Positions 10,282 through 47,289 of a DNA stretch of 64,000 bases are shown piece by piece. The translations under genes were made by a program, and so were the position numbers. Every line of letters begins with the position of its first letter. Position 1 is the stretch's first letter. The notes below the pieces were generated by a model, which saw only the letters and a program-made list of their open reading frames with translations, had not been told where the DNA came from and did no database searches. Origin of the DNA: Nemertoderma westbladi (lineage: Eukaryota; Animalia; Xenacoelomorpha); the NCBI GenBank assembly GCA_032718475.1, contig JAUCBJ010002518.1, positions 18,498 to 82,497 on the forward strand, in the 5' to 3' direction.

Positions 10282-10420
10282 TAAAAATATCTTCGGATTT
10301 TTTAAATTTTTTTGGTAATGGAGCCATTAGTTTTTCCTTTCTATGTGTTTCCATATGACGAGATAAATTGTCTTGTCTCATTTCTTTATTACAAACCAAA
10401 CAACTTTCATGTCTATGCAT
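10214..10420 (-). CDS. Small C2H2 zinc-finger protein
   Basis: CLVCNKEMRQDNLSRHMETH; conserved in the copy at 41772-41954; promoter-like module directly upstream. Confidence 0.55.
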   Translation of the reverse strand: MHRHESCLVCNKEMRQDNLSRHMETHRKEKLMAPLPKKFKKSEDIFSEDEKKKRDERDNIKYKTDNGK

Positions 10421-16401: not shown

Positions 16402-16479
16402 CCGCTCCCAGAAAATGGGATTTAAGTTTATAAAATATAAAAAATCACAGTTTCTAAAATACAAAAAAACTCTAAACTA

Positions 16480-22760: not shown

Positions 22761-22766
22761 AGAATA

Positions 22767-25700
22767 TTACCGCAGTCCCAATAGTATTCCCAACAAGGAT
22801 TGGAGTAAGTTGGGTCCCGGCAACAGTTCGGAGTTCAGGGATTGACCCATATAAAGGGCGGAGCCGTCAAACACTACCCGGAATTCGTTGGCTTTACCAG
22901 GCTTGGGAACGTAATGATGTGTTAGATAATACGTTCTTTCCATTATGGGTGTTTCTTCCGGAACTCGCTCCGCATATCCTTTATCAATAAATTTCTTCAG
23001 CTGGGTTCTATACATTTCCCTGGCTTGATCGTTGGCAGTAAGACGCCGATGTAGTTGCGCGATTCTCTTTTCCGCTAAAGGTCGGTTATTTATAAAGGTG
23101 GGTTCTCGCCGTCGGAATGGAAGACCAATCTCATAGCGACCTTCATCCTTCAGATAATGGGTTGTCGTTTCCTGAATCTGCTTGGCTCTCTCTTCCTCGA
23201 CAGACAAGGCTTTGTTGTAGGAATTAGGCTCTACGGCTTCTTGAGTAAAGAATCGTACGGCGTGTTCATCACGGATTTTGTTATTGTATCGATCTATCAC
23301 TTCATTTAATTCGTCATTATAAGTAAATTGTCCGCCATGTTGATCGATGAGATGGCATAGGTTGACTTGGTTTAACCAAGTTTGGGTTTTGGTGAGGAGA
23401 TCGATTATGTTTTCCTCATCATACAGTTGATTAATGTCGTCATTATCTGAGGAGTATGGAGTTCCCTCAGTTGTGGTTTCTCCCTCACTGATTTCTTCTT
23501 CCCATTCACTCACCTGATGTACTCTCTCATTAGGGAGTCTTTCCATTAGAGTTCTACGGGAAGGTCCAGTGAAGTACCAACCTACTCTCGTTCTTCCCGC
23601 ATACGTTTGTAATGGTTGCGGTTTTTCTAATGTCTCAAGCGCTTCGTGCGCATTTTGGCCGATTAATATCTGCACCCCTGGATAGTCAGTGTTGAATCTA
23701 GGTATATTATGTTGCTGGGTAAAATGGTCTTCATCCCAGTTGTAAGGTTCCACTTGGCTAGTAGCAAAGTTCTTTATAGCCACCATTTTTACCGACCTTA
23801 CACTATGTTCTCCTAGTTCATCCTGGGGAGTGGATAACACACCCACGTAGTAATCTGTGGCTACTGTGGATTTCCAAACCTGCATGATTCCTGAAAGGTT
23901 CAACTTAGTTCGGAACTTGGCTTGTCCAGCAAAGATGTCTTCGGCTAGTTCTTTGTCGATGAATCTACCTGTGCTGCCGGAGTCAAGTAGGGCGTTTACT
24001 ATCAGGCTCTTCCCTAGCCCATGGACTCTCAGCTGCACCACAGGAAATTCCCGGATTCCGACAGAGGAAGTTGGCGCTTTCCAAGATGGTTGTCGGTCCG
24101 GAATAGTCAGTTTAGGATTTTCCACCTCCGATTCAGTCTCGTACGTAAGTGCTCGATACACAGCGGTGTTTATCATATAACAGGATTCATTTTCGTCGGA
24201 GAATTCGTCCGTGTAGAATCCTTCCATCTCAGAACTGTGGTCAGTGTCGATCACATCACTGAATTGGACATGTAGTTCAGGCTCACTTACCTGACTCGTG
24301 CGGGTTCTGTCAAATTCTGTGTGCAGCAAGATGTGATGTTTCGCGCCGCACTTAGCACACCTCGCGTCTGAGTAACAGGTCCGTCGTTGGTGTCCTCGTC
24401 TGAGGCAATTATAACACAACCGCTTATCCCACATGACATCACGTCTATCCTTAAGGGATTTCTTCAAGAATTCATCACACCCACTCAAGCGATGTGGCCC
24501 GTCGCACAATGCACATTTGGGTTTGATGTTACTTACTTTAACATGTGTTGTGTTGTGCACACTTGTTCTTTCCTCTGGCTTTCTTCCATGAATTCTCTTA
24601 GGAGACGTAGGAGGAGTTGTTACCTGATCTCTCCTGTCACTGGTTCGAGACTTAGATTTACTTACGTCTTTCCTCATTTTATTGACATAATAAGATCTTT
24701 CAGTGTCCTTACCGCTATTCTCCTCGTATGAGGTTTGGCTTTCGCCATCGTCCGTATAACACACTGGTGTTACCTTTCTCCTAGAAACGGGTTTTTCACT
24801 CACCTTACTCTCTGGTGTCTTCTCTCTGGACTGCTTTAGGAGCTGTAATCTTACCTCTCCATTTAAGAATGACATAAGATCAGCCATGGTAGGGTCTCTT
24901 TGTTGCTGGTCCATCATATAGAGAACCTTGTTGTCCCAACGATTACCTACTCCACCCTTTGGCAAAATTGGCAAAGTAGATGCTACGGCTCCAACAACCA
25001 TAGAACTCTGATATTCTTGAGACTTACCTAACCAATCTAGCTGTCTACAGATCTCTTGAATCTCATTGGAAAACTCTATAATCGCGCTGCTAAGAAACTT
25101 TCGGGGCGCTACTAATTTCGCATATAAATACCTAGCTATGTTAGTCCTATTACCATACCTGATGTTTAGTGTATCCCAAACTTGTCTTAATCCATCTGGA
25201 TGTCCAATAAACTTTAACGCCATTAACTTGGGAGGTCCTTCCAAGCACTCGGTGAGGAATCTAAGTTTCTCTCTGTTAGATAGTACAGAGTTCTGTATGT
25301 TATCTTTATAATATTCATTAAAAGGTAACCATTTCATCTCATATCCATTAAACTTGACGACCTCTCCCACCTTTACCGCTTGACGGGCTTCGGTTCTAGC
25401 CATTTGACGTGTAAAACTTTCTTGAGCCATCGTATTATTTAATATCGAGTTATCGGTATATAAATTTCTCGGATTATGATCAGATCTGTATGGGATATCA
25501 TTATCAACGGGTTTATAATTACCCTTAATAGGGTTTACTATAGGAGTTTCTACTTCACTAGTAGTATAGATGCGTGTAGGCTCCACACCTTGCGCATGAA
25601 ATATTTCAGATCTAATGGGTTGACACATTGTTACATGGGGTGGTGGTATACCCATTTGTATATTTACTAATTTATCGCGCTCTAAAGCGATACTTTGTTG

Positions 25701-26177
25701 TACTTCTTGTAACTCTAACCTACTCTCTCTCACTGTTCCCTTTAACTGCTGCACAGTACCTTCCAATTCTCGGACCTGCTGTGAAGACCTTTGTCTATGG
25801 TCTTCCAGTTGCCCGAGCAGGCGGTTCATCCCCCGCCGTCCCTTGTCCACCCACTCAACCGCTGAAGCGGGAGCCGCCAACATAGTAGCGGGGTGACGCG
25901 TAGGGACGACGGGAGACAAGTCATTTATGTCTTGCTCGGCGTCCAGGACCGGATGTGGTTCCGGGGCTTGTCTACTGGGCACAGGTAATTTAGTACTGTG
26001 CAAAGGGAATTTAGAGTTAGGTTCTGGAAGTACAGGGGTCTCCATCACCGGAGTGGCTTCCATGACAGGCCTAATTATTTCAGGCTCATCTACTATAGTA
26101 GGGAGTCTTTCTACTCTAATAATTTGGTCTGTAGGTTCTTGATTACTTAAGTCTACATTAGCTAGTTGCCTTCTCAC
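22767..26177 (-). CDS. Element A gag-protease-RT N-terminus
   Basis: KFNGYEMKWLPF gag core; BEL triple knuckle CALCDGPHRLSGC / CYNCLRRGHQRRTC / CAKCGAKHHILLH; protease LLDSGS; RT RVVFDGSA...SLNSELLPGPNL. Confidence 0.92.
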   Translation of the reverse strand: MRRQLANVDLSNQEPTDQIIRVERLPTIVDEPEIIRPVMEATPVMETPVLPEPNSKFPLHSTKLPVPSRQAPEPHPVLDAEQDINDLSPVVPTRHPATMLAAPASAVEWVDKGRRGMNRLLGQLEDHRQRSSQQVRELEGTVQQLKGTVRESRLELQEVQQSIALERDKLVNIQMGIPPPHVTMCQPIRSEIFHAQGVEPTRIYTTSEVETPIVNPIKGNYKPVDNDIPYRSDHNPRNLYTDNSILNNTMAQESFTRQMARTEARQAVKVGEVVKFNGYEMKWLPFNEYYKDNIQNSVLSNREKLRFLTECLEGPPKLMALKFIGHPDGLRQVWDTLNIRYGNRTNIARYLYAKLVAPRKFLSSAIIEFSNEIQEICRQLDWLGKSQEYQSSMVVGAVASTLPILPKGGVGNRWDNKVLYMMDQQQRDPTMADLMSFLNGEVRLQLLKQSREKTPESKVSEKPVSRRKVTPVCYTDDGESQTSYEENSGKDTERSYYVNKMRKDVSKSKSRTSDRRDQVTTPPTSPKRIHGRKPEERTSVHNTTHVKVSNIKPKCALCDGPHRLSGCDEFLKKSLKDRRDVMWDKRLCYNCLRRGHQRRTCYSDARCAKCGAKHHILLHTEFDRTRTSQVSEPELHVQFSDVIDTDHSSEMEGFYTDEFSDENESCYMINTAVYRALTYETESEVENPKLTIPDRQPSWKAPTSSVGIREFPVVQLRVHGLGKSLIVNALLDSGSTGRFIDKELAEDIFAGQAKFRTKLNLSGIMQVWKSTVATDYYVGVLSTPQDELGEHSVRSVKMVAIKNFATSQVEPYNWDEDHFTQQHNIPRFNTDYPGVQILIGQNAHEALETLEKPQPLQTYAGRTRVGWYFTGPSRRTLMERLPNERVHQVSEWEEEISEGETTTEGTPYSSDNDDINQLYDEENIIDLLTKTQTWLNQVNLCHLIDQHGGQFTYNDELNEVIDRYNNKIRDEHAVRFFTQEAVEPNSYNKALSVEEERAKQIQETTTHYLKDEGRYEIGLPFRRREPTFINNRPLAEKRIAQLHRRLTANDQAREMYRTQLKKFIDKGYAERVPEETPIMERTYYLTHHYVPKPGKANEFRVVFDGSALYMGQSLNSELLPGPNLLQSLLGILLGLR

Positions 26178-26554
26178 CGCAGGAGGTAAATTGGGTAACT
26201 TCTGACGGTGTGGCGTTCTTCTACATCTGCTTGTATGAGATTTATTACCTTTCCCCTCGGGATCTGTTGTATCACCCTCATCGGAGGAGGTAAATCCCTG
26301 TCTTCTGGGAGTAGATTAACTCAGTATTTGCATCTGAGTAGCTGTCCTTTGTTTCTTCAAGTAATCTTGTTTCGCCTGAAGGTTCTCCAGCTCTAGTTGG
26401 GTAGTCGCTTCAGACGCCTTCTGTTCTGTCTCTGCCACTGCCGCCTTTCTTTCAGCCTCTGCAGCTGACGCCTTCCTCTCAGATTCTGCCGCTGCCTCTG
26501 CCGCTGCCGCTTTTCTTTCAGCCTCTGCAGCCGATGCCTTCCTTTCAGATTCTG

Positions 26555-26672
26555 CCGCTGCCACTGCCACTGCCGCTGCCGTTGCCACTGCCGCTGCCGC
26601 TGCCGCTGCCGCTGCCGCTGCCGCTGCCGCTGCCGCTGCCGCTGCCGCTGCCGCTGCCGCTGCCGCTGCCGC
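26555..26672. repeat. (GCCGCT)n array encoding poly-Ala in the gag N-terminal AAAEAERK repeat region
   Basis: Visible; homologous to the open Ala/Glu repeat at 63340-63600. Confidence 0.85.
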
Positions 26673-27581
26673 TTTTCTTTCAGATTCCGCAGCTGCCGCC
26701 TTCCGCTGCTGCTGACCTTCGGTCTTCTATTTGCCTTTTCTTTATCTGCTCTTCTTGGTCCATCGCTATGAGGATGCTTTCATCAAATTTAACCTGCTCC
26801 GCAGCTAATATTTCCGCATCTAACGAGTCCAACACAAATTTGGCTCCCTCACTATTAGGGTGAAGTCCAGCTAGCCGTCTCCTTAGCTCTTTGTCACCTA
26901 TAAATCGTTGATAGTCCGACAGATAGATGTCAATAGCATCCTTCTTGTTAGCTTATTCAATCCCGCTAACACCCCATAAAGTTATAAGCCGATAAGCAAT
27001 ATTGGGAGCCACGAGATTGGGCAATTAACCAACTCGTGCCATCCCAATAAGAGTGGGAAGGAAGCACACAATAAAGGGTCAGGGGCCAAACCCCTAACCC
27101 AGAGAGTACAGGTGGAGTGAACGGGAACACTCCACGGGGCGCCAACAAGGGTATCAACCAATCAGAGGGGGGCAAGGCATCGATTAGGTAGTAATTAGGC
27201 CAACCGTGCAATATAATCAGTAACCTATTAATCAGTAATTCAGTTATCTCAATGCAGTAGTGCTAGCATAGGTTAGTTAGTTTAGATAGGGGAGCACGGG
27301 ACTTTTAGTTACCGTATCCCGCCTTCCACATATCTATATCTATATCTTATACCCATCAGTTATTATACACCAAACATCAGAACTCATTCACTGCTTTCGT
27401 TTACTCTTTATACACGGCGGGGACGCGTAAACTAAAATACCGGATAAATCGGGATCCCTCCTGGATCCCGTCACAGTAACTAAAATCTAGTTGCCGCCCT
27501 AGCTAAACTGTAAAAGTAACTAAAACCAGCTGCCGCCCCAGATAAAAGCCAAACCACCAGTCACCAATCTGCAGAAGAGAG

Positions 27582-28567
27582 ATGAGCCAGTCAGGTGAAT
27601 CGACACCGCCGCGGACCCCGGACGACGATCTAACGATCCGCGAGGCCACGGCGAGACGATACGAACCCACGACGCCGGTCGATGCTACGCCGACCACGTC
27701 GACGCACGTTGACGCCACGTCGATAACGAGCGACCCGGCGAACCAAGATGTGGGGGGTCGTCTACAAAGAGGGGACGAGTCGGGAGTCGAAAGGGAGAAA
27801 GACGAGGTCAACGTACCGATGTCGCCGGCCAGCCACAGGCCGAGGACGACGAACGGTCCACCGGAACGGCGACGGTGGGGCCGTCGGTACGACGTCGGAC
27901 CCGGAGAGATGGAGGAGAGGTCGGCGACGAGGACGTCGGGGTTTCCGATCGACTTCGACGGGCCTACAACGCGACCCGGGAACTACTAAAGGAGGCCAAG
28001 GAGGGGGCGAGGATAGACGAGGTCAGGATGACAAAGGGACTAGGTGAGTCGAACAGATACTTTGATCACCTAGTGTGTTCTGGGCAGAGAGAACTGGCCG
28101 GGGAGAGAGCGAGAGGGGTTGCCTTCGAACTGTTTGGGCTATGGGAACGTAGGGGTATGGGGCCTGGTGTAGTGTACATAGGGCCATACTTAGTCGATGC
28201 CAGGGAAGTTAAGTTAGTGGGTTGGAAGAGACATGGGGAGGGCGAATCCGAGGTTAACTCCGAGGATTCGGTCTCGTCGGTCGGAGGAAGTTCTGGGAAG
28301 CGGGGGAAAGTTAGTAGGACGGAGGGGCGACGGGAGTCCGTCGCAACCGATAAGTCTGCTACATCCTCCGCAAAAGAAAGAAGGGTGCGAGAGAGTGAAC
28401 GCGTGGCGTATAAATTAGAAAAGGCGGCGGCAGAGCGGAAACAGTTAGAGGGGCAATTGAGAGAGCAAACCGCATTATTAGAGTTGGTAAGGGAGGATAG
28501 AGAGAGAACAACAGGGGCAACGGGAAACACACCAGGGAAGGTGAAAGGGCGAGAAGTGGGATATTAG
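27582..28567 (+). pseudogene. Element B gag N-terminus (frameshifted, truncated)
   Basis: Overlapping ORFs 27582-27989 and 27875-28567 just after the 5' LTR; SVSS/coiled-coil low-complexity sequence as in BEL gag N-termini. Confidence 0.55.
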
Positions 28568-28877
28568 CCAATGGGGGGACAGCATCGACTAGGTACAGTA
28601 ATATGGCCAACTGTGCAGTACATATATTACCTGTTGGTGCTTCCCTATTCAGTTTAGTTTACTCAGTCAGATCAGTAGGGTGGAACGGGGACTTCTGTCA
28701 CCGTCCGCTACCGCCATCATACTTATTACCTGTTGTGTCATACTATACTATATATCTCAGACTATTATACCTTTATACATATTACCGAACATCAGAACTC
28801 TTTTACCTTTCACACACGGCGGGGACGCGTGGATAGAAAACCCAACGGATAAACCGGGATCCGTAGATCCCGTCACA
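28560..28877 (+). mobile_element. 3' part of a related B-type LTR (variant B2) inside element B
   Basis: Homologous to the B LTR and to the solo LTR (ATTAGCCAATGGGGG...CACGGCGGGGAC...GATCCCGTCACA). Confidence 0.8.
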
Positions 28878-29010
28878 GTGACAGAACAGATCAGATACAG
28901 GGCGCGAGGTTCGCGACATCCTAAAAGGATTCGGCTTTAACCTGACAAAATTCCAATCCAGTTCGGAAGAATTTATCAAAGCCATAGAGGACAGGAAACC
29001 AGAATCGACC

Positions 29011-31497
29011 ATGGATAACCCCACAACAGCCAAAGGGCAGGACATGGCGATTAAGAGAACAGAATCTCAGCAGAAGGCATTGGGAATCGTGTGGGATAGA
29101 AAGACAGACGAACTGAAGTATCAGCTGAGCCAGGAGGGCGCAGACATCCACACAAAGAGGGGCTATGTATCGTATATAGCAAGGATATACAATCCCCTAG
29201 GCCTAGCATCCCCATTATTAGTCACGGGGAAACAGATACTCAAGAGAGTATACAAATTGAAAGATGAGTGGGACGTAGAGGTACCAGAGGAAATCAAGAA
29301 ACAGTGGAGCAAGTGGACAGGAAACCTGGAGAAGATGGGAACATACAACATGCCAAGGGTGTATTTCCCGGATGGGAACATGACGAATCTGGACCTACAC
29401 ATGTTCTCCGACGCGTCGTTGGAAGCGTACGGAGTGGCACTCTACTTAGTACAACGAGAGGGGGCTCATAAGCCAAGGCTAGCCTTTAGCAAAGCAAAGT
29501 CAACGCCGCCAGATTCAGCATCAGTTCCCAAGTTAGAATTGACAGCTGCGAGACTAGGAGTAAGAGCCACAGCCTACCTAGTGGATACTATTCCCAACAT
29601 AGTGGAGACACACTACTGGACGGACTCCATGGTAGTGCTTGGTTGGCTACACAACGAAAAGACGAGATACCCGATGTTCGTCGCGAATAGAGTGGACGAA
29701 ATAAGGGCGAGCACAGAACTGGAACTGGGGTGGCACTACTGCCCAACAGACGAGAACCCAGCGGACTTGCTGTCGAGGGGCGTGGAACGCCACACTTTCC
29801 TGAAGAAGGAAGTATTGTGGCAACATGGGCCACAATTTCTGAGCGATAGGGAGGCCTGGCCGCCGATGAGGAAGGTGGACCCGGGCTCGGAAGTAGTATC
29901 AGAAGGAGAAGAGGGAGACTCAGAGGGAGAAGAGATATACTCCCAGATGGCGAGGGAGATTAGGGACGTGCAACTGTGCAGGAAAGGAAAGGAACTGTGC
30001 GATAACCCGACGGATAAACTCCTCAGCTACAGTTCTAGTTGGTATAAAACCAAGAAACTAGTGGCGTACTGGAGAGCCTTCGGAAATTTCCTTGCGGGAG
30101 TCGGCAAGGACAAGAAGATCAGGACAACCATAGATCTGGAAGGAGCGGCCAAGGCAGTGATCCGCTATGAACAACGGAAGAACTACGGCGACGAGGTGGA
30201 ACGCGTCGGTAACCAACAGCACCTCCGACGGGATAGCGAGCTGATTACGCTGTCGCCACAACTCAATGACGACGGGATTCTAGTAATGAATTCTAGGGTG
30301 GGATACAACAACAGCATAGTCGTACCACCGAAACCCATCATCATTCCCACAGGATCGCCAATAGTCCACCAGATTATATGGGACTCCCACAAATCGATAT
30401 TGCATGGGGGCACCAACCGAACCCTCACAGAGATAAGGAGGACCTATTGGGTCAAACAATTAAGGAAGAAGGTTAAAGTGGTAGTGGGGCAGTGCCAGAC
30501 CTGCCGACGAGCGAAGAAGGAGCGAGCCATACAGGAGATGGCGCCACTACCGGCGAGTAGGGTAAGACAGCACGACCCGCCATTTACGCATTGCGGTGTG
30601 GACATGTTCGGGCCGATAAAGATCAAAGTGATGCGACACACGGAGAAACGCTACGGCATTATCTTCGTATGCAACAATACGCGGGCGGTAGGGATAGAAC
30701 TCGCCCAAGATGCAACCGCATCAGCGTTCATTAACGCCTTGGAAAGATTTAGGGACCGCAAAGGTGGGACGATCGCAGTGATATACAGCGACAACGGCAC
30801 CAACTTTGTGGGCGCAGAGAGTGAGATGGCAGAGGCCTTGGACATCTTGGAGGGGGAAGAAGTCAGGGCAGCCATGAGACGACGACAAGTAAAGTGGGAG
30901 AGAAGGACGCCTTATGCACCACATACACTAGGATGCGTCGAGAGACTAGTGGGCAGTTCAAAGCGTCTAATGATGAAGCTAATGAATACCCACATGGTCA
31001 CTGAGGACGTCTTACGGACAGTACTTGCGAAGTGCGAGGGGATCATTAATAGCAGACCGCTATATCCGGAGAATGATGACCCTGAGTCACTAGACGTGCT
31101 AACGCCTAGCCATTTCCTGATGGAAAGGCCAGCAACCATCGATATGCGGGGTGTAGACCCAGACGACATACACTCCCGCCAAAGTTGGAAAGTCGCTAAA
31201 GCGATAAGCGCAGAGTACTGGAGGAGGTGGGTCGAGGAATACCTACCCACCCTCCATAAGCGAAGCAAGTGGAGGAAGCCGAACAGGGAGTTAAGAGAGG
31301 GAGATCTCGTAATCGTTACGGATGATACTATCATCAACAACCAATGGCGGTTGGCGAGAGTTGTAGGCACCTACTCCGACGAGGACGGAAGAGTCCGATC
31401 GGTAGAAGTGCGGATAGGTGGAAAGATAGGTGCGAAGGACAGAAAAACTTACAGGAGAGCTATAGGTAAATGCTGTCTATTGGAAGGGGCACCTTAG
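29011..31497 (+). CDS. Element B pol C-terminal part: RT thumb, Pao RNase H, integrase
   Basis: YNPLGL, HMFSDAS, PKLEL, WTDS, NPADLLSRG; HHCC (H..ILHGG...CQTC); DDE core GVDMFGP / SDNGTNF / VERLV; ends RAIGKCCLLE. The upstream GFNLTKF RT remnant shows protease and RT core are deleted. Confidence 0.93.
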   Translation: MDNPTTAKGQDMAIKRTESQQKALGIVWDRKTDELKYQLSQEGADIHTKRGYVSYIARIYNPLGLASPLLVTGKQILKRVYKLKDEWDVEVPEEIKKQWSKWTGNLEKMGTYNMPRVYFPDGNMTNLDLHMFSDASLEAYGVALYLVQREGAHKPRLAFSKAKSTPPDSASVPKLELTAARLGVRATAYLVDTIPNIVETHYWTDSMVVLGWLHNEKTRYPMFVANRVDEIRASTELELGWHYCPTDENPADLLSRGVERHTFLKKEVLWQHGPQFLSDREAWPPMRKVDPGSEVVSEGEEGDSEGEEIYSQMAREIRDVQLCRKGKELCDNPTDKLLSYSSSWYKTKKLVAYWRAFGNFLAGVGKDKKIRTTIDLEGAAKAVIRYEQRKNYGDEVERVGNQQHLRRDSELITLSPQLNDDGILVMNSRVGYNNSIVVPPKPIIIPTGSPIVHQIIWDSHKSILHGGTNRTLTEIRRTYWVKQLRKKVKVVVGQCQTCRRAKKERAIQEMAPLPASRVRQHDPPFTHCGVDMFGPIKIKVMRHTEKRYGIIFVCNNTRAVGIELAQDATASAFINALERFRDRKGGTIAVIYSDNGTNFVGAESEMAEALDILEGEEVRAAMRRRQVKWERRTPYAPHTLGCVERLVGSSKRLMMKLMNTHMVTEDVLRTVLAKCEGIINSRPLYPENDDPESLDVLTPSHFLMERPATIDMRGVDPDDIHSRQSWKVAKAISAEYWRRWVEEYLPTLHKRSKWRKPNRELREGDLVIVTDDTIINNQWRLARVVGTYSDEDGRVRSVEVRIGGKIGAKDRKTYRRAIGKCCLLEGAP

Positions 31498-31619
31498 CAA
31501 AGCTAGAGGATATTTTAGTCGTCCAAGTTTTGGACTGAGGGGGGTGGGATTGAGGGCGAGACGCCCTTCCCACAAACAAAATAATAAAATAAAATAAAAA
31601 AAATAGTACATGGTAGGTA

Positions 31620-32290
31620 CGCAGTTAGTAGGCAGAGAGTTAGTTAGAAGGTACGTAAGTACCTAGTTAGTTAGTTAGTTAGGAGGTACGTAGTACCGCC
31701 AGTTAGAGAGTTAGTTAGAGGGTACGTAAGTACCGTTAGTTAGTTAGTTAGTTAGGAGGTACATAGTACCGCCAGTTAGAGAGTTAGTTAGAGGGTACGT
31801 AAGTACCGTTAGTTAGTTAGTTAGTTAGGAGGTACATAGTACCGCCAGTTAGAGAGTTAGTTAGAGGGTACGTAAGTACCGTTAGTTAGTTAGTTAAAGA
31901 GTTAGAGGGTACGTAGTACCGATAGTTAGTTAGAAGAGTTAGAGGGTACGTAGTACCGATAGTTAGTTAGAGAGTTAGAGGGTACGTAGTACCGATAGTT
32001 AGCTAGAGAGTTAGAGGGTACGCAGTACCGATAGTTAGTTAGAAGAGTTAGAGGGTACGTAGTACCGATAATTAGTTAGAGAGTTAGAGGGTACGTAGTA
32101 CCAATAGTTAGCTAGAGAGTTAGAGGGTACGCAGTACCGATAGTTAGTTAGAGAGTTAGAGGGTACGTAGTACCGTTAGTTAGAGAGTTAGAGGGTACGT
32201 AGTACCGATAGTTGGAGTTAGAGTTAGAGGGTACGTAGTACCGTTAGTCAGAGTTAGAGTTAGAGGGTACGTAGTACCGTTAGTTAGAAG
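31620..32290 (+). repeat. Tandem array of ~30-37-bp units, each with a GGTAC-N3/4-GTACC hairpin and (AGTT)n linkers
   Basis: Visible, about 20 units, between pol and the extra ORF. Confidence 0.9.
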
Positions 32291-32778
32291 AGAGAGAGTA
32301 AGAGGTAAAAAGGGGTATATAAGATATAGATATTAGTTAGCAGTTAGTAGCGAGAGGGGGGCATATGAGTACAGCTGGGTAAATCGTGTGGCCACACGAC
32401 GTATACTGCTGTACCGCATAGACCCACAGGGTAGGCCAGAATGTGGATTAGAGAATAGAGTAATCCATAGGCAGTAGTAAGTTGTAGGACAGTAGAATCA
32501 AAGTAAATAAAATAAATAAATAGAATAGGGCTGAAAATTGTAAAATAGTGGCAACACAAGGGAAGTTATTCTAGAACATAATAAAAGTAACGGACAGAAA
32601 TCGAAATTAGGGTGTATTTACTAGCTTCAAAATTAATTAGGAATAATTTAGGTTAAAAGGCGCAGTTAAGTAGGAAGTAGGCCATTATCGAACTGTACAG
32701 AACATCCTAGACACATCACTCATCTGTATTGCGCCTTGGTAAGGCACCACCTTGCAGGTGAGCGAGTGAACGTTCGGA

Positions 32779-35325
32779 ATGGCGAGTAAGTTGATCAGAA
32801 AGAGAAAGGCGGAGTCAGGAGGAAAGGAGATACTGGTGGATTTCACCGAGAGACATACGGAAGAGAAGACGAGAGGATACTACGAGAGGTTGGAAAGGGG
32901 TCACGCGGCACGAGCGCTGCAGGATCACTTCCGGGAGGCGCACAAACAGCGGCTGGTCGGGACCTACGGGACCCCGTCGCTAGACAACGCGATCTTCCAA
33001 CACTTCCACTACGTGGTGAAAGGGGACGAGGCGAAGTTCGGGATTCCGAAATACCCGAGGGAATCACCGAGGAAGGACTGGAAAAGATTCATAGAGTCCG
33101 TCAACAGAGGAGGATATATGATCCTAGATGACGAGGGAACCGTGGAAGACGAGGCGGGCTCGAGACGAGGAACGGCAGGGTCAGCCAGGACCATACTCCT
33201 ACATTTGGCCGCGCCAAATGGGGACATCTTCTTATTCGACCTAGGGACGTATGGGAAGAAGGACGGGCCGAAATTAGACCGATTACCGAAAGCGGTACAA
33301 GTCTTAGTAAGAGAGAAGTCGACGACGAAAGTGGGATCGGCGATTCGCGAGGACGCGGAGAGGATCATCGGTCCGGACGCCACCAACCTCCTGGATATGC
33401 AGAAAGTCTTTATGGCTATGACGGCACCGGATGGATTGGGGGTAGTCGAAAACACAGGCCAATGTGGGGCGGTGGCGATGGGCCAATTATTGGGGCTCGT
33501 ATGCCACAAACCGATGGAGTGGGGGAAGTTTAGGGAAGAATACGGGGCAGAACTAGCAAACTCGCTAAAGTGGGGAGCTAGACCGGGAAAGCAGGAGGTA
33601 TATCAGTTCCGCAGGGGAGCGATAAAGGTATATCAGAAGCGATATATCCTGCAGGAGGACTGGATGATGATAAGTTTGCTTAACTTATTCATGACCATGA
33701 TTATCGAGAGGGAACCAGGGGCATTTCTGTTATCGGGATCACCCCTAAGCTACAGGAGAGCCTTTAAAGTGGCCTTTGACGGTCTGGTAGACCACCCGGG
33801 GCTGAAGGGCGAGTCGGTGTATTACAACAGCCGACATCTGGTAGACGGGGAGACAGATACACCGTATCAGAGATGGGAGCAGTTAGAGACGGATAGACGA
33901 GAAGCAAAGCGACTGGAAGAAGTCGCTAGACGGGAGAGGATAGAAGCAGAGGAGAGGGAAGAGGAGGCCAGGACACAGAGTTACGGCTTCGAGGAACAGG
34001 CGGGCCTAGACGAACTTCATTGGACTTCGTCAGGGAGTTCGGGGGAGTCTCTAGGGCGAGAATTGGGATGGACGGTGGGATCGCCGAAACAGTCGACGTC
34101 GGGGTTGCGAACGATGCCCATACCAGCGGGCGCCGAGGGCGACCAACCGCCAAGGAAGTTAAGGGAGCTAGAGGGATGGAGAGCTACGGGCGAGAGCCAA
34201 GGTGGGAAGGGACATAGTGGATCCATCGGGATACCGGGATTGGAGACACTACCAGAGGAGGACGACGACGACGAGTTCGGAGAGATACCGCCCATCGAGA
34301 GGATAGGCCACTCGGACACGGACTGGGTTGGCGGAAGGGTGGTGACGGCCAGTGGGGCGAGGGCCTTCTGGAACAGATCCGGCAAGCGGACCTGGGTGCA
34401 CGAGGAGCCGGCGATGGATTTCGCGGGGAGCACCATCAGGTTGGGCGAGCAACCGGGGACGGCACCACGGATAGTATTCGGGGAGACGATGCCCGAGAGG
34501 GGCGGAGAGATCGACGTAAACAGGGAGACCAACGTAGAGAAGTTCGCCTACCAGCGACTCCACAGACTGCAGAGATCGCTTGGGACGAAAGACGAGGTGG
34601 GATGGGAGACATTGGTACTCGGCTGCGACTACTGTGGGAGACAGACCCATCGGGAAAGCAGCTGCCTATACCGGTTCCAACAGGGAACCTTTTGTCTCTA
34701 CTGCAGAGAACCAAGCCACAGGATGGGGGCGTGTCCACGGTTGCATAACCGATGTCCAAAGTGCCACTTTCGGGGACACTACGGACGCGAGTGCGACTGG
34801 ATGAACGACGAGGAGAAGTTCACAAGATTCGAGGAGTAGGCCGACGTCGGGGCCATGACGCGCCAGTGCATGAAGGCCCAGGAGTTTAAGTGGGGTTTCT
34901 TCCTTATCAATCAGGAGACTCACATGGAAATCATAAAGCGGAGGCTACCGTTTACCTACCAGGAGGTAGCAACGGCGGCGTCGTACGCTGGAGTGATGAA
35001 CACGCAAAGGTATCTGGACAGGTGGACGCCAGAGAACCGAAGGGAGTTTAGGGATTTCTTGGCGGAGCACGTACCAAAGGCAATGAAAATGATCCTATGG
35101 GACTCCACTAGAGGGAGACAACCGGGCCATTCTGAGGGGCCACCGGCGAAGCGATATCGGGCACTAATAACACCAGCGCCCAAGGAGCCAACGACCGGGA
35201 TCAGCAAGGAAGTGGCGGCGAAGGTCCGAAAGCAGAAAGCGGATGATGCCAGAGGAACGGTGATAACCAAGAAGCGGCCCAGGGAAGAGGACGCTAGGGG
35301 GAACTACCCCCGGAGGAACAGATAG
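32779..35325 (+). CDS. Element B extra ORF: DEDDy (WRN/EXD/RNase D-like) 3'-5' exonuclease plus three CCHC zinc knuckles; one in-frame TAG at 34837-34839
   Basis: ExoI ILDDEG, LLHLAA, LFDL, LPKAVQVLV..KVGSAIREDA (ExoII), NLLDM and QKRYILQED (ExoIII-like). CDYCGRQTHRESSC, CLYCREPSHRMGAC and CPKCHFRGHYGREC. ORF 34855-35325 is in the same frame. Confidence 0.72.
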
Positions 35326-36561
35326 GTTCCCAGAGTCGAGGGAGAGAGACTGGGACTTGGACGTGGTACGCCTGGCAGGCGCCGCGTGGGACGTACGAAC
35401 TATTAAGTACAAATTTAATTAATGCAAATAATCATATAAGTGAAATCTGTATGTACGTACGTAGTGATTAGTAATCTAGAAATATATACGTTCGGAGTAA
35501 GTACTATAGTCATACAACCTTTCTCAATTAGCTACTGGGACTGGGGGATAACTGACTATGGCACTATGGACGAGACACCAGACAATTTCACACTTCTTGA
35601 GTGCGACGGCACGAGAGGGGGGGGAGATTCGTCAGAAGGGAAGAGACAGTCAAAGTGAGGTTGAGGGACGGAATAATAGTGCGGAGTGCGGAGAGAGTGC
35701 GGACGCAATTCTAGTGTGGGGGGGGAGAATAAGAGGCTGAGTGAGGGACGAGGAGGTCTGAGTGTGAGAGAGTTAGGGTGAGAGTGAAGGTGAGATAGGG
35801 CGGAGGTGTTGGGGAAACAAAAGTTGCGTGAAAGGTGAGCGCGATTGGCCCGACATGAGACGCCAGGCAAACAGGGTAGCGTTATCATACCCATAGGGGG
35901 CGGCCTGGAAAGCCAAATCCGAGAAAAAAGAATTCCACCCCACACCCGATACTAGATCGGGATCCAGCGGGATTGTAGCGCACTTTTTGGTTGATGCTAT
36001 CTTCTTACCGGGAAGATAGCATGGGGGGGAGTGTTAGCTTATTCAATCCCGCTAACACCCCATAAAGTTATAAGCCGATAAGCAATATTGGGAGCCACGA
36101 GATTGGGCAATTAACCAACTCGTGCCATCCCAATAAGAGTGGGAAGGAAGCACACAATAAAGGGTCAGGGGCCAAACCCCTAACCCAGAGAGTACAGGTG
36201 GAGTGAACGGGAACACTCCACGGGGCGCCAACAAGGGTATCAACCAATCAGACGGGGGCAAGGCATCGATTAGGTAGTAATTAGGCCAACCGTGCAATAT
36301 AATCAGTAACCTATTAATCAGTAATTCAGTTATCTCAATGCAGAAGTGCTAGCATAGGTTAGTTAGTTTAGATAGGGGAGCACGGGACTTTTAGTTACCG
36401 TATCCCGCCTTCCACATATCTATATCTATATCTTATACCCATCAGTTATTATACACCAAACATCAGAACTCATTCACTGCTTTCGTTTACTCTTTATACA
36501 CGGCGGGGACGCGTAAACTATAATACCGGATAAATCGGGATCCCTCCTGGATCCCGTCACA

Positions 36562-37514
36562 CTTCTTCTGAGGTTTCCCGGATATAACTTCGCCTTCCAC
36601 CTGAGAAAAAGTAGCGACTGTTGATTCTCCGTGGGTCATGTGCTCCGTTAGCTGAACTTTCCATTGTGTCGTTCCCTGGGCTTTAAGACTTACCCGTTGG
36701 AACCAAGTCTTTACGGCCACTTGCAACGACGTGTCTTGGCTTCTCTTCTAGGCTTCCTCAAAGGCTGAAAGGATTAGTCTGATCCGTAAAATTCGTTCTC
36801 GCACTTGATAAAGCAGCTCTCCCTGCTCTTGAGGTCCTTGATGTTGTTGAAATAGGTGTTCCTCTAATCTCTCCAAAGAACTGAAGAATCCCTGGACATA
36901 TCCTGCTGCCGACCTCTTCCATACAGCTGGATCTCTAGTGTCCCTTACTATCACCATCCTGTATAAGTCCTCCCAGGCAGCTTCCGATAAGTTAAACGGG
37001 AGTCCGGGTCCGGGGAAGTTCCATTGCGTCTCGACAATAGACCTCAGTTCCTCCATCGTCTATCCCGCATAACTGTCCCTGGTCGATCGCTTATTTCTCG
37101 CCCAATCGATTTGATGTTCCTCCTCCACAATCAATACTCTAGTGAGTACGGCCCCAGGAAGAATTAGAAGTGGATCTGGATAAACCGCTTCTGCCATCCT
37201 TGCTCCGATCTCGGGCGTCAACTCTTCAGTGTCTGAACTACTAGAGTTATCGTGCCATTGAGAAATAAGTTATCGGTTCGGGTGGTGCTGCTGTTTAACA
37301 GCTGCTTCTTGGTCCCGCTTAACTTGAGCCCTAGTGCCTATAATAGACCTATGGTGCTTTACTAGCGTAGGGTCTGATACTACTACTGTAGGGATGACCT
37401 TTCTTACAGTAGGAGGGGACTTGGACTTTGGTCTCAGATGTTCGATACTCTTATCGAGTTACAGACTGTTCTTTCTAGGAGACTATCTGACAGGGTTTGT
37501 TTTGTGTCAGCCAT
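36562..37514 (-). pseudogene. Element A gag N-terminus (disrupted)
   Basis: Homologous to the open ORF starting at 62168 (EELRSIVETQWNFPGPGLPF...RIRLILSAFEEA). Confidence 0.85.
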
Positions 37515-40164
37515 GATTTATTTTACAGTTGAATGCCTACTACTATAACGACAGTTAAAGTAAGTCTAGTAATTCAGTATCAACTGTAAGCCTAGTAATT
37601 AATTACCGATACCATTACTCAGTGTAACGTGATATATATATAATATTAAAATACCGGTATATGCTTATAGTATATATATAAGTATTATTTACAGACTAGG
37701 TTCAGTCACAGAATACCGGTATATAATTTCAGCCTAAATTTATATAAATAAATATAATAAGCTTACCGTAAATACCGGTAATGTCAATTATTTAATAATA
37801 ACTGAGTTTCTGAATTTTAGGGTTACTTCCCTTTACTTTATTACTGATATTAAACAGTAGTTCAACTGATATTAAGACCTAATTGATGTATGACAGGCCT
37901 ACTATTTTATAAATCTGTTTGAGTTGATTTATAAATATATATATACCCGTACAATGGGTTTTGATAATGTTTGAAATAAATGTTATTATTTCTAGATAAA
38001 GCAAAGAGTCACTACACAGAAGCTGAATGCTCTCAGTGGAGTGCTACTTGTTGGACACTAATACAGATAATTCTACTTTACTAAGTTATTTATCACTACA
38101 AATTACTTACAATTACTAACAGGTTGAGATTACAATCTCTAAATAAACAATAAACAAGTTACACGTACAATTTTTTAGGGTAATTTTACAAGAATTCTAC
38201 GAACCAGCCTAACAAGGAGTTAGAATTTCTGGTTCTTACTAACTGACAGGAAACTATGGTAGTTGAAACCAATAAAGTAGTAGTAAGTAAGTTGCGTTGT
38301 CCAGATAAGGAAATACCACCGTCTGATGACTTATAGTCTTAAACTCTATAAGTACTACGTTATGTACCCGGAGTGTCCTTACCTAGAGGTTAATTATCGA
38401 AGCCAACCAGAGCTAACGTACCTATTAACCACGTTACAACGCAAATATACTGCCTACACACTAAATTACTTTCGGAAAGCACTGTACTCGAAACCCTAAA
38501 TTAGGTACAAGTACTTATACAACAAATAACCAGCAGTTAAATATACTTGAACAGCCAAAAGAACCATGGTATCTGCTGGAGTGACCGGAGCACAAAATCA
38601 CCATTCTTTACCTACACCAAGCACCCCTGATGTAATACCGGGGTTAATTTAACTATAATGGTATGTATAACAAGCACAATTACTGTAGGAATAAACTTAG
38701 GGAATTGGAGGTTGCGAATACTCGCATAGACTCTGAATAATAAATATTACACTACCCGTGCAGACTATTTAAACAAAACACAGACCAAATGTTGGCAGAC
38801 TACTGTCAAGCCTAAATAAACTACAGTATATGCAGACTCCAAAATGGTTAGTTAGTAGGCGTTCTAACCAAGTAGTACGACTTATTCTTTTGGGGGGGAT
38901 TTACCTTACAGCACTGGATGCCCCCACCTTCCTAACTAGCACTTTATCGGACAGACACTCTACACACACTGCAATCGCCTCAGACCTAACAACAGTTAGA
39001 CAACAATCCGGCCTACAAATTATTTATACAATCTGAGCAGGCTTACACGCCTTCTGCTCAATATTACACTTACAGATAAATAAAACTGACAGAAATAAGT
39101 AAAATCCCAATAAAAACCAGGGCTGCAGTCCCCGATTAAATATCAAGACCTACCGGTATATAATTATCACAATCAAAATAATACTGCTGTACCTGTAAGT
39201 ACCGGTTCGGGTCATTAGGCCTACAGCTTACCGTCCGACCAGTACATTCGACTTTATTGCCTACGGCGCAATAAAGAAACTAAATCTATTAATGTTCTTA
39301 CCAGAACATTAGACAAAGTATATTTATTGCCTACTGTGCAATCAAGAAACTGAAATCTATTAATGTTCTTACCAGAACATTAGACAAAATATATTTATTG
39401 CCTACTGCGCAATAAAGAACCAAATCTATTAATGTTCGTGCTTTTAGACCTTTAGAGGTTTAACCTGCCAATTTTAGTTGTCCTCTTGTTTATAAATCGA
39501 CTTTAGCCTTTATCAATTACCTAGTGTACTGAAGTTACATCAGCCGAAGCCAGTCCGTGCGCGGCGTATGACCCACGGTGTGGGAGACTGGATTCGGATT
39601 CCTTGAGAGTGATTGCAGTGTAGACCTACTGTATTATTCCATTGATCGTTACTATATAATCTCTGACAAATATATTTACTTTCGGGGAAATATTAACAGT
39701 TCCTTTAGGACGTGGCGCTTTAAGTATAAAAACAGAGTTATGACTTATACTAATCAGAACTAGATGGCCACAGAGTTTCGTAAATAGCGCATTCTTTAGG
39801 AGATGCTTTATTAACCTTCACACTACTTCAGACGACTTCACACTACTTCCCACTAGTTCGCACTAATCTGCCGACCGTCACTGAATTTGATCATATATAA
39901 GGAGGATCGCAACTGACACACGTAGGGATTATGAAATAGCATTTGATTCACACAAAACCACTATAATTTAAGTCGCAGTTGCTACCGGTAAACCTGTTCC
40001 TCCTACCTCAGTAATCAAGAAGATTGAGGGGTTTATGATTATTTATCGGTATTCTCCAAATATAACAGCAATATCCATTAATATAACAACAATTAATAAC
40101 AGAAGTAAAATAATGCGGTGAGCAGTCAGTATGTGTCATCAGAAAATAGTAAAGTAAATGGGAC

Positions 40165-41021: not shown

Positions 41022-41954
41022 TAATTTACTTTTATTTCCAAGGACTTGTCTTAATATCTCTTCTCTATTTTCCTCATTTTCCTCCATTTGTTTAATAAAT
41101 TTCCGCATTTGTTTTTTGTTTACTAATATTTGTCTCAATATCTCTCTTTATTTTCATCATTCTCTTTTAAATGTTTAATAAATTTCTGTAATTTAATTTT
41201 ATTTCCTCGAACTTGGGTCAATGTCGCCTCTTTATTTTCTTCATTTTCCTTCAAATGTTTAATAATTTTCCGCAATTTATTCTTATTTCCAAGTAATTGT
41301 CTCAATATTTCCTCATTATCATCATTTTCATCCTCTTCTTCACTTTCTTCATCTTCTTGTTCATAACTTTCTTTATTTTCTTGTTCCTCACTTTCTTCCT
41401 GATCTTCACTTTCTTCACCCTCTTTCTGACCTTCACTTTTTCATCCTCTTCCTGTTCTTCACTTTCTTTACCCTCTTCATGTTCTTCACTTTCTTCATCC
41501 TCTTCTTGGTCTTCACTTTCTTCACCCTCTTCTTGACCTTCACTTTCTTCATCCTCTTCCTGATCTTCCTGATCTTCACTTTCTTCGTTCTCAACTACAC
41601 TCTTTTCAACTTCATCCTGATCCTCACTATTTTCATTCTCCATCTCATCGTGCTCTTCTTCTTTATCTTTCTCACTCAAATTTTCTGCATTTTCTAGGGG
41701 CAACTGTTTTTGTATCCCTTTCAAAATATTCATAACTTTATGAAATTTATTTTCCATTGTCTGTTTTATCTTTAATATATCACGCTCATCTCTCTTTTTC
41801 TTTTCATCTTCACTAATAATATCTTCGGATTTTTTAAATTTCTTTGATTCTGAGGATCAATTAGTTTATCCTTTCTATGTCTTTCCATATGTCGAGATAG
41901 ATCGTCTTGTCTCATTTCTTTATTACAAACCAAACAACTTTCATGTCTATGCAT
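41022..41954 (-). pseudogene. Second, frameshifted copy of the zinc-finger and acidic-protein ORFs
   Basis: MHRHESCLVCNKEMRQDDLSRH and MENKFHKVMNILKG; homologous to 9466-10420. Confidence 0.8.
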
Positions 41955-42283: not shown

Positions 42284-42842
42284 TGTTAGCTTATCCAATT
42301 CCGCTAACACAAACCCATAAAGTAAGCCGTTAAGCAATATTGGGAGCACGAGGTTGATTACCCAACCTCGTGTCACCCCAATAAAGTGGGAAGGAGAAAC
42401 ACACAATAGGGGTCAGGGGCCACACCCCTGACAGAGAGAGAACAGCAAGGGCGAAGGGAAGCACTTCAGAGGGGGGCAAAGGGTGCCAACAAGGATATTA
42501 GCCAATGGGGGGAAAGCATCGACTGAGTAACACCACGTGGCCAACCGTGCAATATATATTACCAGTCATTATTATCCCATTCACTTAGTAAGTCAGTTAG
42601 TTAGGGTAGTAACGGAACTCTAATCACGTCTCCGTCCACTGCCACCATCACCGTTCAATGCATTACCGGTATTCACCCACTTTATCATTATATCAGCTTC
42701 TACTGTGTTTATACTATTATACCCTATATTATATATACACCGATCAGTCAACAACACCGGAACTCTTTTACATTACGCACGGCGGGGACCGTAGATTAGA
42801 AACCAACCGGATAAATCGGGATCCTTGGTGGATCCCGTCACA
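42284..42842 (+). mobile_element. Solo LTR of B-family variant B3
   Basis: TGTTAGCTTAT...GATCCCGTCACA with 5-bp TSD TAAAC at 42279-42283 and 42843-42847. The empty site is seen near 10730-10740. Confidence 0.9.
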
Positions 42843-44997: not shown

Positions 44998-47049
44998 TTA
45001 CCTAAATGCTGCCGGGTGGCGTATAACTTCCTGGTGTGGTTTAGAGACAATCCTTTTCGCTTCTCTGGTTTTAGGTTCTGTAAATTCGTTTCTCATTTTA
45101 TGGCTTTGCCGATACCTACGAATCTTATCCAAGGCTCCATCGGATGGGTAGGATCTCATGCGATCTTTGTTTTTATGAGAACCCGCAGTGGTGAAGCTGT
45201 ACCCCTTAGTATCATCGACTAGGGCGGGGACTATTGAAGGCTTTTGAGCTTGGCCAGTAGTGAAACCCGACTTGATCGAAGCCAAGGATGATCGATGTTT
45301 AAGAGACCCTACCACGTGATCGCCTCGTTTACTTCCTTTAACGGTTTGATCGTTAGTGGCTCCTGTCGTACCTATTGGTGTATCCCCTTCTAGCCAACCT
45401 CGTTCCTGAACTTTGTCCAATATGAATTGTGGGGCTTTCTGCCCAATCTCACGAATAAGAACCGAAACGAAACAACCATTTTGAGTTTCAGACGGAGGCA
45501 TTACGAGAAATTTACCACTAAATGGTAAATCGATTTCCTCTGTATTACCACTCTCATTCGGACAAATATGTTCCATTTCACAGACAGTGATAGGTAGAAC
45601 AGGTGGACTTGCAACATAAGGTTGAATGCTATCGATGTTTATCATTGATAACGATCTATTTATAACACCTTCGTTTTCAGAATCGTAAATGGATTGTGTA
45701 TAGTACACCGCGCCTTGGAGGGTGGGAAGTTTTAGAACATTGATGAGCATTTCCGTATGATTCGCGGCTAATTGAATCCGTTGATGTTTATACTTGGTAG
45801 AAGATATCGTTAGGTCACACAGTATCCTTTCATCGGCGCCCTCAAACACGACTAAGTCAACGGGGTTGACAATTCCGGAGCCGGAATCATCAGGTGTTAC
45901 CAAGGCAATCTTAACTCTGCGCAGTCGTGTGTCGTGCAAATCAGAGGTTGTGAATTTATGTTTGGAGACAGTAATGTTGTGAGCACCAATTTTCTTGAAT
46001 TTATTGACAAGGGAGGTGAAATGCTTCTCGCTGTTTGCGTTGTAAGCCAATATTCGACAGTCAGTGCCGCTAAGGAGACTAGCCAAGTGCATCGCCAAGA
46101 CGCCACTCCCGACGTTTGGTACTATGACATCATCCCCGTCATTGAGGAGGTACTTCGTAGACCAGACAGGGAAAGCTGACGCTCTATTCTGTACAATTAA
46201 TCTGTTGGAGGTGCAAAGTGAATGTGTAATAATATTTTCAGAAGCAGTTCTGTGAAAAATGATAACATCTTTGCAACACCGATCCACGTAAAATTGATTG
46301 GAACACATCAAGTCTTCGATATTGTCAACGGGACAATACAGAGATCTCTCCAAGTTCTCAATAACAGATTTCAAATCGGTTTTAAAAAAATTCACCCATG
46401 TAGCTACAACCAATTTGGAAAGAGCTTGTTCTTTCTCCCTCTGCTCTGTCGAAAGAAAGCAGTCCAACGACAACGCACTGCAGCTAATTCTCTTACGGGA
46501 TTGGGCTGCATGGAGTCGCGTCACGTTATTGTCAACAGCTGTTTGAACTTCCTCAACCATCTCGTTAGGATCATACCCTTTGGGGACATCTTTTACCCAA
46601 GGTTTATAACTCGTAGAATTGAATTTCCCTTCGTTGTAATCCAGCAGTATTATATAAACTAAACTACATAAATCATCGCTTAATTTGCTTGTATTCATAA
46701 AATTAGTGTCTTGAAGTATATCACAAATGAGTTTCTTATATTTCAATGTCTTGTGGGCTAGAGTGTAAGCCGTTTGTTTTGAATGATCAGTGTTATAAAA
46801 CGGAACGTGATAAGGAAGTTTAATATCAGTTGGTCCGGAATCTTCTTGGTCATCCCGATCCAATGTTTCGTATATATATGCCGCGTTTAGAATATCCAAT
46901 ACATTCAAATCGGTTTCTCTGCTCGTTTGTATCAAGCTCTCCCGATTGATTTCCGAGGCGATTATTGACCCAGATTTAATTTTAATGCAATTCCACGAGG
47001 CGTTGCTGTCGGTGCGGGACAGTGACTCTGTTTCGTTTGTTTCACTCAT
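44998..47049 (-). CDS. NSUN7: NSUN7-like RsmB/NOL1 family protein, intronless, probably catalytically inactive, nested antisense in the DEG/ENaC intron
   Basis: Intact 683-aa ORF. AYTLAHKTLKY...DILQD, WVNFFK, LIVQNRASAFPV, ALVTPDDSGSGIVNPVD and AVYYTQSIYDSENEGVI resemble NSUN7 motifs. Confidence 0.75.
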   Translation of the reverse strand: MSETNETESLSRTDSNASWNCIKIKSGSIIASEINRESLIQTSRETDLNVLDILNAAYIYETLDRDDQEDSGPTDIKLPYHVPFYNTDHSKQTAYTLAHKTLKYKKLICDILQDTNFMNTSKLSDDLCSLVYIILLDYNEGKFNSTSYKPWVKDVPKGYDPNEMVEEVQTAVDNNVTRLHAAQSRKRISCSALSLDCFLSTEQREKEQALSKLVVATWVNFFKTDLKSVIENLERSLYCPVDNIEDLMCSNQFYVDRCCKDVIIFHRTASENIITHSLCTSNRLIVQNRASAFPVWSTKYLLNDGDDVIVPNVGSGVLAMHLASLLSGTDCRILAYNANSEKHFTSLVNKFKKIGAHNITVSKHKFTTSDLHDTRLRRVKIALVTPDDSGSGIVNPVDLVVFEGADERILCDLTISSTKYKHQRIQLAANHTEMLINVLKLPTLQGAVYYTQSIYDSENEGVINRSLSMINIDSIQPYVASPPVLPITVCEMEHICPNESGNTEEIDLPFSGKFLVMPPSETQNGCFVSVLIREIGQKAPQFILDKVQERGWLEGDTPIGTTGATNDQTVKGSKRGDHVVGSLKHRSSLASIKSGFTTGQAQKPSIVPALVDDTKGYSFTTAGSHKNKDRMRSYPSDGALDKIRRYRQSHKMRNEFTEPKTREAKRIVSKPHQEVIRHPAAFR

Positions 47050-47289
47050 ATTATTTTGGTTTATTTCACTATTATAAATGTTAAAATATTTCGTAGGTGG
47101 ATTTTACTAAAGTTTATTAATCTTTGAATATTCTGCACGTAGATCAACTTGTTAGGCTAGTTAAGTGCTAAAAATAACCTACGTTCTGGAACATATATTT
47201 ATGTAATATACTATTCAAAAACTCTTAGCAACTACTTACGTAATTTTATTTCAAGTTGATGATTATTGCAAAGCTCTGCATTCAACTAT

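Follow-up and report, generated by a model that had tools for sequence, protein, structure and literature searches.

The window, which is the whole stretch of 64,000 nucleotides of Nemertoderma westbladi DNA that was analysed, carries a plus-strand retroelement of the BEL/Pao type, bounded by two type A long terminal repeats (LTRs) of 530 bp at 26946-27475 and 36032-36561. The terminal features are those of a BEL/Pao insertion: the LTRs begin with TG and end with CA, a polypurine tract (PPT) at 36023-36031 adjoins the 3' LTR, and a short target-site duplication of 5 bp, CTTCT, flanks the whole (26941-26945 on the left, 36562-36566 on the right). With 3 differences between the two LTRs over 530 sites, the insertion is young. 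It lies within the first ORF of a second BEL/Pao element, which is on the minus strand and occupies 16400-26945 and 36562-40136. In this host element, gag is preceded by about 2.6 kb of sequence, and the integrase is followed by an additional, broken ORF (18693-16480) that contains a Cys/His cluster and matches neither Pfam nor a DEDDy domain convincingly. The 5' region of the host element is present a second time at 12968-15986 (97%), and a copy of a related family is found at about 59360-64000. For the neighbouring BEL/Pao element, neither an LTR end nor a PBS (primer-binding site) could be located. Elements of the host type contain an alanine-rich low-complexity repeat in their first ORF, at 26405-26863 on the minus strand and 63148-63630 on the plus strand.

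The 5' LTR of the plus-strand element is followed by a primer-binding site (PBS) of the non-tRNA type at 27476-27485, which does not start with TGG and is partly repeated 41 nt downstream. The first ORF (27586-28567) is an N-terminal fragment with a frameshift; it is gag by position only, and its part at 27713-28564 has no Pfam match. A related subfamily, type B, is represented by an LTR truncated at its 5' end, which occupies 28496-28886 together with its own 9-nt PBS (28878-28886). The order across the junctions is therefore a gag-like fragment, the type B LTR piece (28496-28877) and pol, starting at the tail of the reverse transcriptase (RT); the type B fragment marks an internal deletion or recombination. 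Only the C-terminal half of pol is present (28882-31497), with the RT tail, a Pao-type RNase H region, the integrase H2C2 and core domains and DUF5641. The Pfam matches follow the Pao-type order, PF05380 (RNase H, E 1.6e-38), PF17921, PF00665 (below the cut-off) and PF18701, and all 120 protein relatives among the matches listed are PF05380-carrying, Pao-type polyproteins at 33-41% identity. Because the gag core, the protease and the RT core are missing, the copy is defective and not autonomous, and it would have needed enzymes supplied in trans. Among the contigs listed, none bridges the internal junctions by at least 31 bases, which leaves amplification of the deleted form unsupported. No Rfam match is found in 26900-36600, and no tRNA gene in the whole window.

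Between the integrase and the PPT lies a third ORF, ORF3, on the same strand. It is preceded by a tandem array of about 18 copies of a 36-bp unit (31634-32288) and by a TATA box and, about 26 nt downstream of it, an initiator-like CAGTT (32316-32345), consensus matches that form a candidate internal promoter for ORF3. The region between this TATA box and the ATG, 32470-32760, is A/T-rich, contains three AATAAA words and ends in donor-like and acceptor-like words; it is a possible 5' UTR intron. ORF3 runs for 848 codons from the ATG at 32779 to the TAG at 35325, starting 1.28 kb past the integrase stop (31497) and ending 0.7 kb before the PPT. The first-pass annotation had described a same-strand ORF of about 848 codons at this place; its position, strand and span hold, but the frame is not open, because a TAG in frame at 34837-34839 (codon 687) limits the product of this copy to 686 residues. 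The remaining 161 codons (34840-35325) continue in the same frame, encode a basic tail and belong to no known family.

The middle letter of this stop, at 34838, is replaced by another letter at full depth in all four runs with contigs over it (39, 23, 36 and 1), so the stop is either an error of the assembly or a lesion of this copy. The ORF3 stretch or a part of it is found in six of the seven listed sequencing runs, under two organism labels. Three DNA runs from two samples give 9640, 5479 and 6216 contigs over 32320-36600, a contig depth that is not a copy number, with depth in 30 of 30 bins; 1575, 1257 and 1217 of these contigs are less than 90% alike. The second organism label contributes 17 contigs over 19 of 30 bins. 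ORF3 is thus a diverse multi-copy family gene and no one-off capture, and the possibility, raised earlier, that the ORF is absent from other copies is contradicted by the contigs of four runs, in which the frame is kept. Among the 32 listed contig pieces, which the tool selected for their length and which are no random sample, 2 of the 19 inside ORF3 and 11 of the 13 outside it are gapped (Fisher p 4e-5); none of the six that start at or after 34828, past the stop, has a gap. Likewise, none of the 12 indel rows listed of 63, also a tool-chosen subset, falls inside ORF3, which makes up 59% of 32320-36600. The gap pattern points to selection on the whole 848-codon frame, and ORF3 is very probably a selected gene throughout the family.

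The N-terminal half of ORF3 contains a putative 3'-5' exonuclease domain of the DEDDy type, residues 90-310 (33046-33708). The three exonuclease motifs claimed in the first-pass annotation are all present, as LDDEG at residues 116-120 (ExoI), KVGSAIRED at 184-192 (ExoII) and the ExoIII-like RYILQEDW at 288-295; the key residues are D117, E119, D192, W265, Q286, Y289 and E293. An exonuclease family in Pfam, a check that the same annotation proposed, is not matched even at E 10, and a PDB sequence search with ORF3 gives no exonuclease match either. Among 5.8 billion proteins, ORF3 has no relative at near lengths and none at shorter lengths (region 70-330, E 10). The sole match among 1.84 billion representatives, a 14-fold repeat aligning 19 residues, was rejected as a repeat artefact. 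Plasmids give a single match at E 6, phages and metagenome contigs no relative, and viral contigs one counted stretch with no locus.

Feature-based and profile-based comparisons do place the domain. With residues 60-360 as query, 24 of 30 ESM Atlas matches are PF01612 clusters, the top six being unnamed fungal proteins; with residues 100-315, all 30 named clusters carry PF01612. The best named cluster, 'Werner syndrome-like exonuclease', shares 179 of 256 features and has PF01612 in 38% of its members; its score of 0.93 was obtained on a part of a protein, which the calibration of the score does not cover. HHalign aligns residues 90-320 to a 27-sequence DEDDy profile at 69% (E 4.4e-5, 123 columns). 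None of 177 shuffles reaches the ORF3 score (best 21.6 versus 35.5), and the reversed sequence and six of six natural windows stay below 0.4%. A profile of 22 real DEDDy domains together with ORF3 matches RNase D, Rrp6, WRN and mut-7 in the PDB. A narrow, 12-sequence WRN-like profile gives only 8% in HHalign, and one of 1000 shuffles reaches its HMMER score, while none of 1000 does so with the broad profile (a 28-row version with two rows mis-cut). Global HHalign alignment gives 48% with the broad and 0.1% with the narrow profile. ORF3 ranks first among 582 six-frame segments of the window, at 7.1 bits with the next at 3.8.

When MAFFT aligns ORF3, without guidance, to 22 bacterial DEDDy domains, all six invariant columns fall on D117, E119, D192, W265, Q286 and Y289, so that the D-x-E of ExoI and the Asp of ExoII are in register. 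In the Y-x3-D of ExoIII, Y289 is on an invariant column, and the Asp column is occupied by E293, followed by D294; the Ala-Ala that follows the ExoIII Tyr in DEDDy domains is Ile-Leu in ORF3. Identity to the aligned bacterial members is only 15-20%. An AlphaFold prediction from the DEDDy alignment reaches pLDDT 70 and pTM 0.71, compared with pLDDT 33 from the single sequence. The top match of this model is trypanosome RNase D (TbRND; PDB 7c42/7c45) both in Foldseek (E 6e-5) and in VIA (Z 12.5, rmsd 3.8, 184 residues aligned), where apPol, EXD1, RNase D, WRN and Nibbler tie with it, scoring within 1 Z; giant-virus 3'-5' exonucleases are also among the best fold matches. The DnaQ-like fold sought with AlphaFold and Foldseek is found, but the model was built on the DEDDy alignment, so its matches to the fold class are circular and the independent lines of evidence are the Atlas features and HHalign with its controls. 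By these lines, residues 90-310 belong to the WRN/RNase D group, and the region almost certainly has the DEDDy fold. The domain is predicted to be catalytically active, which we consider probable.

Residues 616-672 (34624-34794) form three zinc knuckles, exact matches to CX2CX4HX4C starting at 616, 639 and 659, as claimed at first reading. Nucleocapsid-type CCHC knuckles bind single-stranded RNA. The best PDB sequence match of the ORF3 knuckles is again TbRND, at a non-significant E of 0.27. With the Atlas features, the controlled HHalign result, the MAFFT columns and these exact knuckles, the earlier reading of ORF3 as a DEDDy exonuclease joined to zinc knuckles stands. As that reading also had it, there is no transmembrane stretch: the highest 19-residue Kyte-Doolittle mean in ORF3 is 1.19, and the N-terminus is basic. 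An env reading of ORF3 was rejected for lack of a transmembrane stretch. Basic clusters are found at residues 7-10, 720, 791 and 831-833. The gene is fused to neither Gag nor Pol, and TATA and initiator-like consensus matches of its own precede it.

The closest known systems in genetic setting are the rotifer LTR elements Juno and Vesta and the Athena/Terminon elements, whose third ORF is likewise an RNase D-like DEDDy protein in the env position with no transmembrane domain (PMC5408684, in part); the statement in the first-pass annotation that rotifer retroelements carry such ORF3s is borne out by the same source. The proposed roles of the rotifer proteins are RNA 3' processing or silencing (PMC5408684, in part). 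The carrier here is a BEL/Pao element, not a member of the Juno or Vesta lineage, and the frame has 848 codons. The rotifer motif is DEED (PMC5408684, in part), whereas ORF3 has D-E-D-E, D192 being the third acidic residue, and the three CCHC knuckles of ORF3 have no counterpart in the text of PMC5408684, where the words 'CCHC' and 'zinc' are absent. None of the sequence searches brought up the rotifer proteins.

In domain architecture ORF3 is like TbRND, in which a DEDD exonuclease is followed by C-terminal CCHC knuckles (PMC7797062, in part). The likeness is one of architecture only: TbRND has four knuckles and a linker of 28 residues, compared with three knuckles and about 300 residues in ORF3, and it is a mitochondrial guide-RNA trimmer, whereas ORF3 is a gene of a mobile element. 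The knuckles of TbRND bind RNA upstream of the 3' end, and its Exo domain cuts with two metals (PMC7797062, in part). By analogy, the ORF3 protein is predicted to degrade single-stranded RNA as a 3'-5' exonuclease. WRN exonuclease, EXD2, Nibbler (mut-7) and the plant Werner-like proteins, all of PF01612, have the same motif order (DxE, KxG...D, W, Q..Y) and include the nearest Atlas clusters; compared with them, ORF3 is below Pfam detection and has Glu at the ExoIII Asp.

The family also has an unusual priming signature. The 10 nt after the type A LTR are the exact complement of a segment within that LTR, 27303-27312, which is a candidate self-primer and also pairs with 27429-27437 in U5. In type B, the first 9 nt after the LTR are the exact complement of 28693-28701. 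Neither primer word matches the other LTR, and each occurs in 3 of 5000 shuffled LTRs. Duplex energies favour the own partner, at -8.9 versus -4.1 kcal/mol for A and -12.5 versus 0.1 kcal/mol for B. The flank of the 3' LTR and the flanks of a solo LTR at 42284-42842 contain no self-primer match. The solo LTR belongs to a third subfamily and has a 5-bp target duplication; its primer segment differs, so that a different PBS is predicted in its parent.

A second, covarying partner of the primer segment lies in U5 (27301-27312 with 27428-27439, 28690-28701 with 28830-28841, and 42617-42627 with 42792-42803). It changes with the primer segment in all three LTRs, and the own partner is the best each time. 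The segment is predicted to be folded into a conserved R-U5 helix in all three, 163-215 nt inside the LTR end. In folding predictions the B segment pairs with the PBS in a short construct and not in a longer one, and the A segment prefers its U5 partner in both; pairing with the PBS thus looks like a switch rather than a fixed duplex, and the segment is possibly an RNA switch between a closed and a PBS-paired state. The self-primer segment to which the first-pass annotation alluded is therefore real and covaries with both its own PBS and its U5 partner. On these pairings the element is quite likely to prime itself. Tf1 and the sushi Ty3/gypsy elements provide the precedent, since their PBS pairs with RNA derived from their own LTR and there is no tRNA site (PMC7175516, in part), as here. 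In Tf1 the transcript's first 11 bases pair with the PBS and RNase H makes the cut, with no exonuclease (PMC7175516, in part). The BEL/Pao element differs from Tf1 in that the match of 9-10 nt is predicted to lie inside the transcript, its end being 45-71 nt downstream of the start predicted from TATA and initiator-like matches, and in having the second covarying partner in U5. A splice-built primer was also considered and is not needed, since the match is contiguous.

What the ORF3 protein does for the element can be read in several ways. The reading placed first, which we hold tentatively and at somewhat less than an even chance, is that it is an RNA-binding 3'-5' exoribonuclease that degrades silencing RNAs of the host, or their precursors, rather than building the primer. 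It ranks first because the gene is accessory, unfused and possibly nuclear, and because its enzyme class has been captured by elements that prime differently, namely rotifer LTR elements and the Penelope-like Athena (PMC5408684, in part). As a separate gene behind the tandem array, with a TATA box and an initiator-like site, ORF3 may well have its own mRNA, transcribed apart from gag-pol. Its protein would be imported into the nucleus through the basic clusters at its two ends, which are consensus matches. The knuckles would hold single-stranded RNA and pass its 3' end to a two-metal site in the manner of trypanosome RNase D, and the targets would be the host RNAs that silence the element. An arenavirus exonuclease of the DEDD class does suppress host immunity (PMC7968707, in part). 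Against counter-defence, the structures nearest to the model belong to enzymes that trim the 3' ends of cellular RNAs, not to suppressors of defence. The layout of the element fits counter-defence somewhat better than primer trimming.

Primer trimming, the second reading, has the exonuclease packaged through its knuckles and trimming an RNA 3' end, that of the transcript or of a cut product, back to the PBS-pairing segment, which would provide a 3'-OH without a tRNA. The non-tRNA PBS and the exact own-LTR matches of 10 nt (A) and 9 nt (B) favour it, as does the place of the segment: it is not a 5'-terminal 11-mer as in Tf1, so some processing is needed, and the nearest solved structure, that of TbRND, trims RNA 3' ends using CCHC knuckles. 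However, Tf1 needs nothing but its own RNase H to make its primer (PMC7175516, in part), trimming from the transcript end would have to cross the long R-U5 helix predicted in all three LTRs, ORF3 is unfused to a particle protein, and it is tied to priming only by co-occurrence in one family. Primer maturation by the exonuclease is therefore rather unlikely. The fuller scheme, in which the knuckles clamp the RNA and the DEDDy domain trims it to a segment that then switches from its U5 partner to the PBS, is decidedly unlikely; if true, an exonuclease-made primer would add a third way of priming to the tRNA route and the RNase H self-priming of Tf1.

A third reading, which is unlikely, is that the nuclease is weak or dead and serves as an RNA-binding adaptor, in the manner of Egalitarian or EXD1, that protects the element RNA or transports it to germ cells. 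The Glu at the ExoIII Asp position and the replacement of Ala-Ala by Ile-Leu are consistent with it, the fold matches include EXD1 and Egalitarian, the latter also in complex with I-factor RNA, and EXD1 is an inactive DEDD derivative that retains RNA binding (PMC5408684, in part). Against it, all four acidic positions are acidic, the Tyr is kept and an Asp is next, at 294; rotifer ORF3s with a D-to-E change are read as possibly active (PMC5408684, in part). An action on DNA, in which the enzyme trims or proofreads cDNA 3' ends during reverse transcription or integration, is very unlikely: even though the nearest named Atlas clusters are WRN-like, the fold search scores WRN and Pol I exonucleases level with RNases, at Z 11-12.5, and the DEDDy domain of Dada DNA transposons has been proposed to process 3' DNA ends (PMC3706591, in part), the three CCHC knuckles point to single-stranded RNA and ORF3 is separate from RT and integrase. 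That ORF3 is a neutral passenger, a one-off capture or nested insertion without a role for the element, is highly improbable: the stop in this copy, the fact that no single contig of another copy links pol to ORF3, and the third-position share of this copy's listed differences (9 of 18, not significant, p 0.11) would suit it, but the frame is kept in thousands of contigs, many less than 90% alike, also past the stop, the stop itself is absent from the contigs of all four runs, and no terminal repeats marking a nested element are found within 32300-36031.

DEDDy ORF3s are known from rotifer Juno/Vesta and Athena (PMC5408684, PMC5718144 and PMC6431247, each in part), and a DnaQ-like domain is listed as a known accessory of LTR elements (PMC6338049, in part). 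The word 'exonuclease' does not occur in the main text of the BEL/Pao survey PMC3118150, and the literature searched, mostly without subscription papers and Repbase, yielded no report of an exonuclease in BEL/Pao. Nor did it yield a report of self-priming in this group; the available part of PMC3601003 mentions self-priming for other groups only. The exonuclease genes in the env slot that are described in print all come from rotifer elements, where copy numbers are low. A BEL/Pao family with many copies, a capture that is apparently independent and TbRND-like knuckles would show that retroelements have recruited DEDD nucleases repeatedly. The ORF3 family is also a tractable case, since it has many natural copies on which selection can be tested and a soluble domain that can be assayed, and the covarying self-priming signature in the same family makes counter-defence and priming directly testable against each other. 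Early papers on nematode Cer elements reportedly describe extra ORFs, which may bear on novelty.

The rest of the window contains several further features. An uninterrupted frame of 701 codons on the minus strand, 44998-47103, has weak Pfam matches to the NSUN5 family (E 0.05) and is likely an intronless host gene of the NOL1/NOP2/Sun type. Two related acidic, repeat-rich ORFs on the minus strand, 9313-10326 and 41302-41856, are 85% alike over 1.2 kb, lie beside palindromic repeat arrays and probably represent another mobile family. From 50786 to about 58850, a 47-bp unit with a strong strand skew is repeated in tandem about 167 times.
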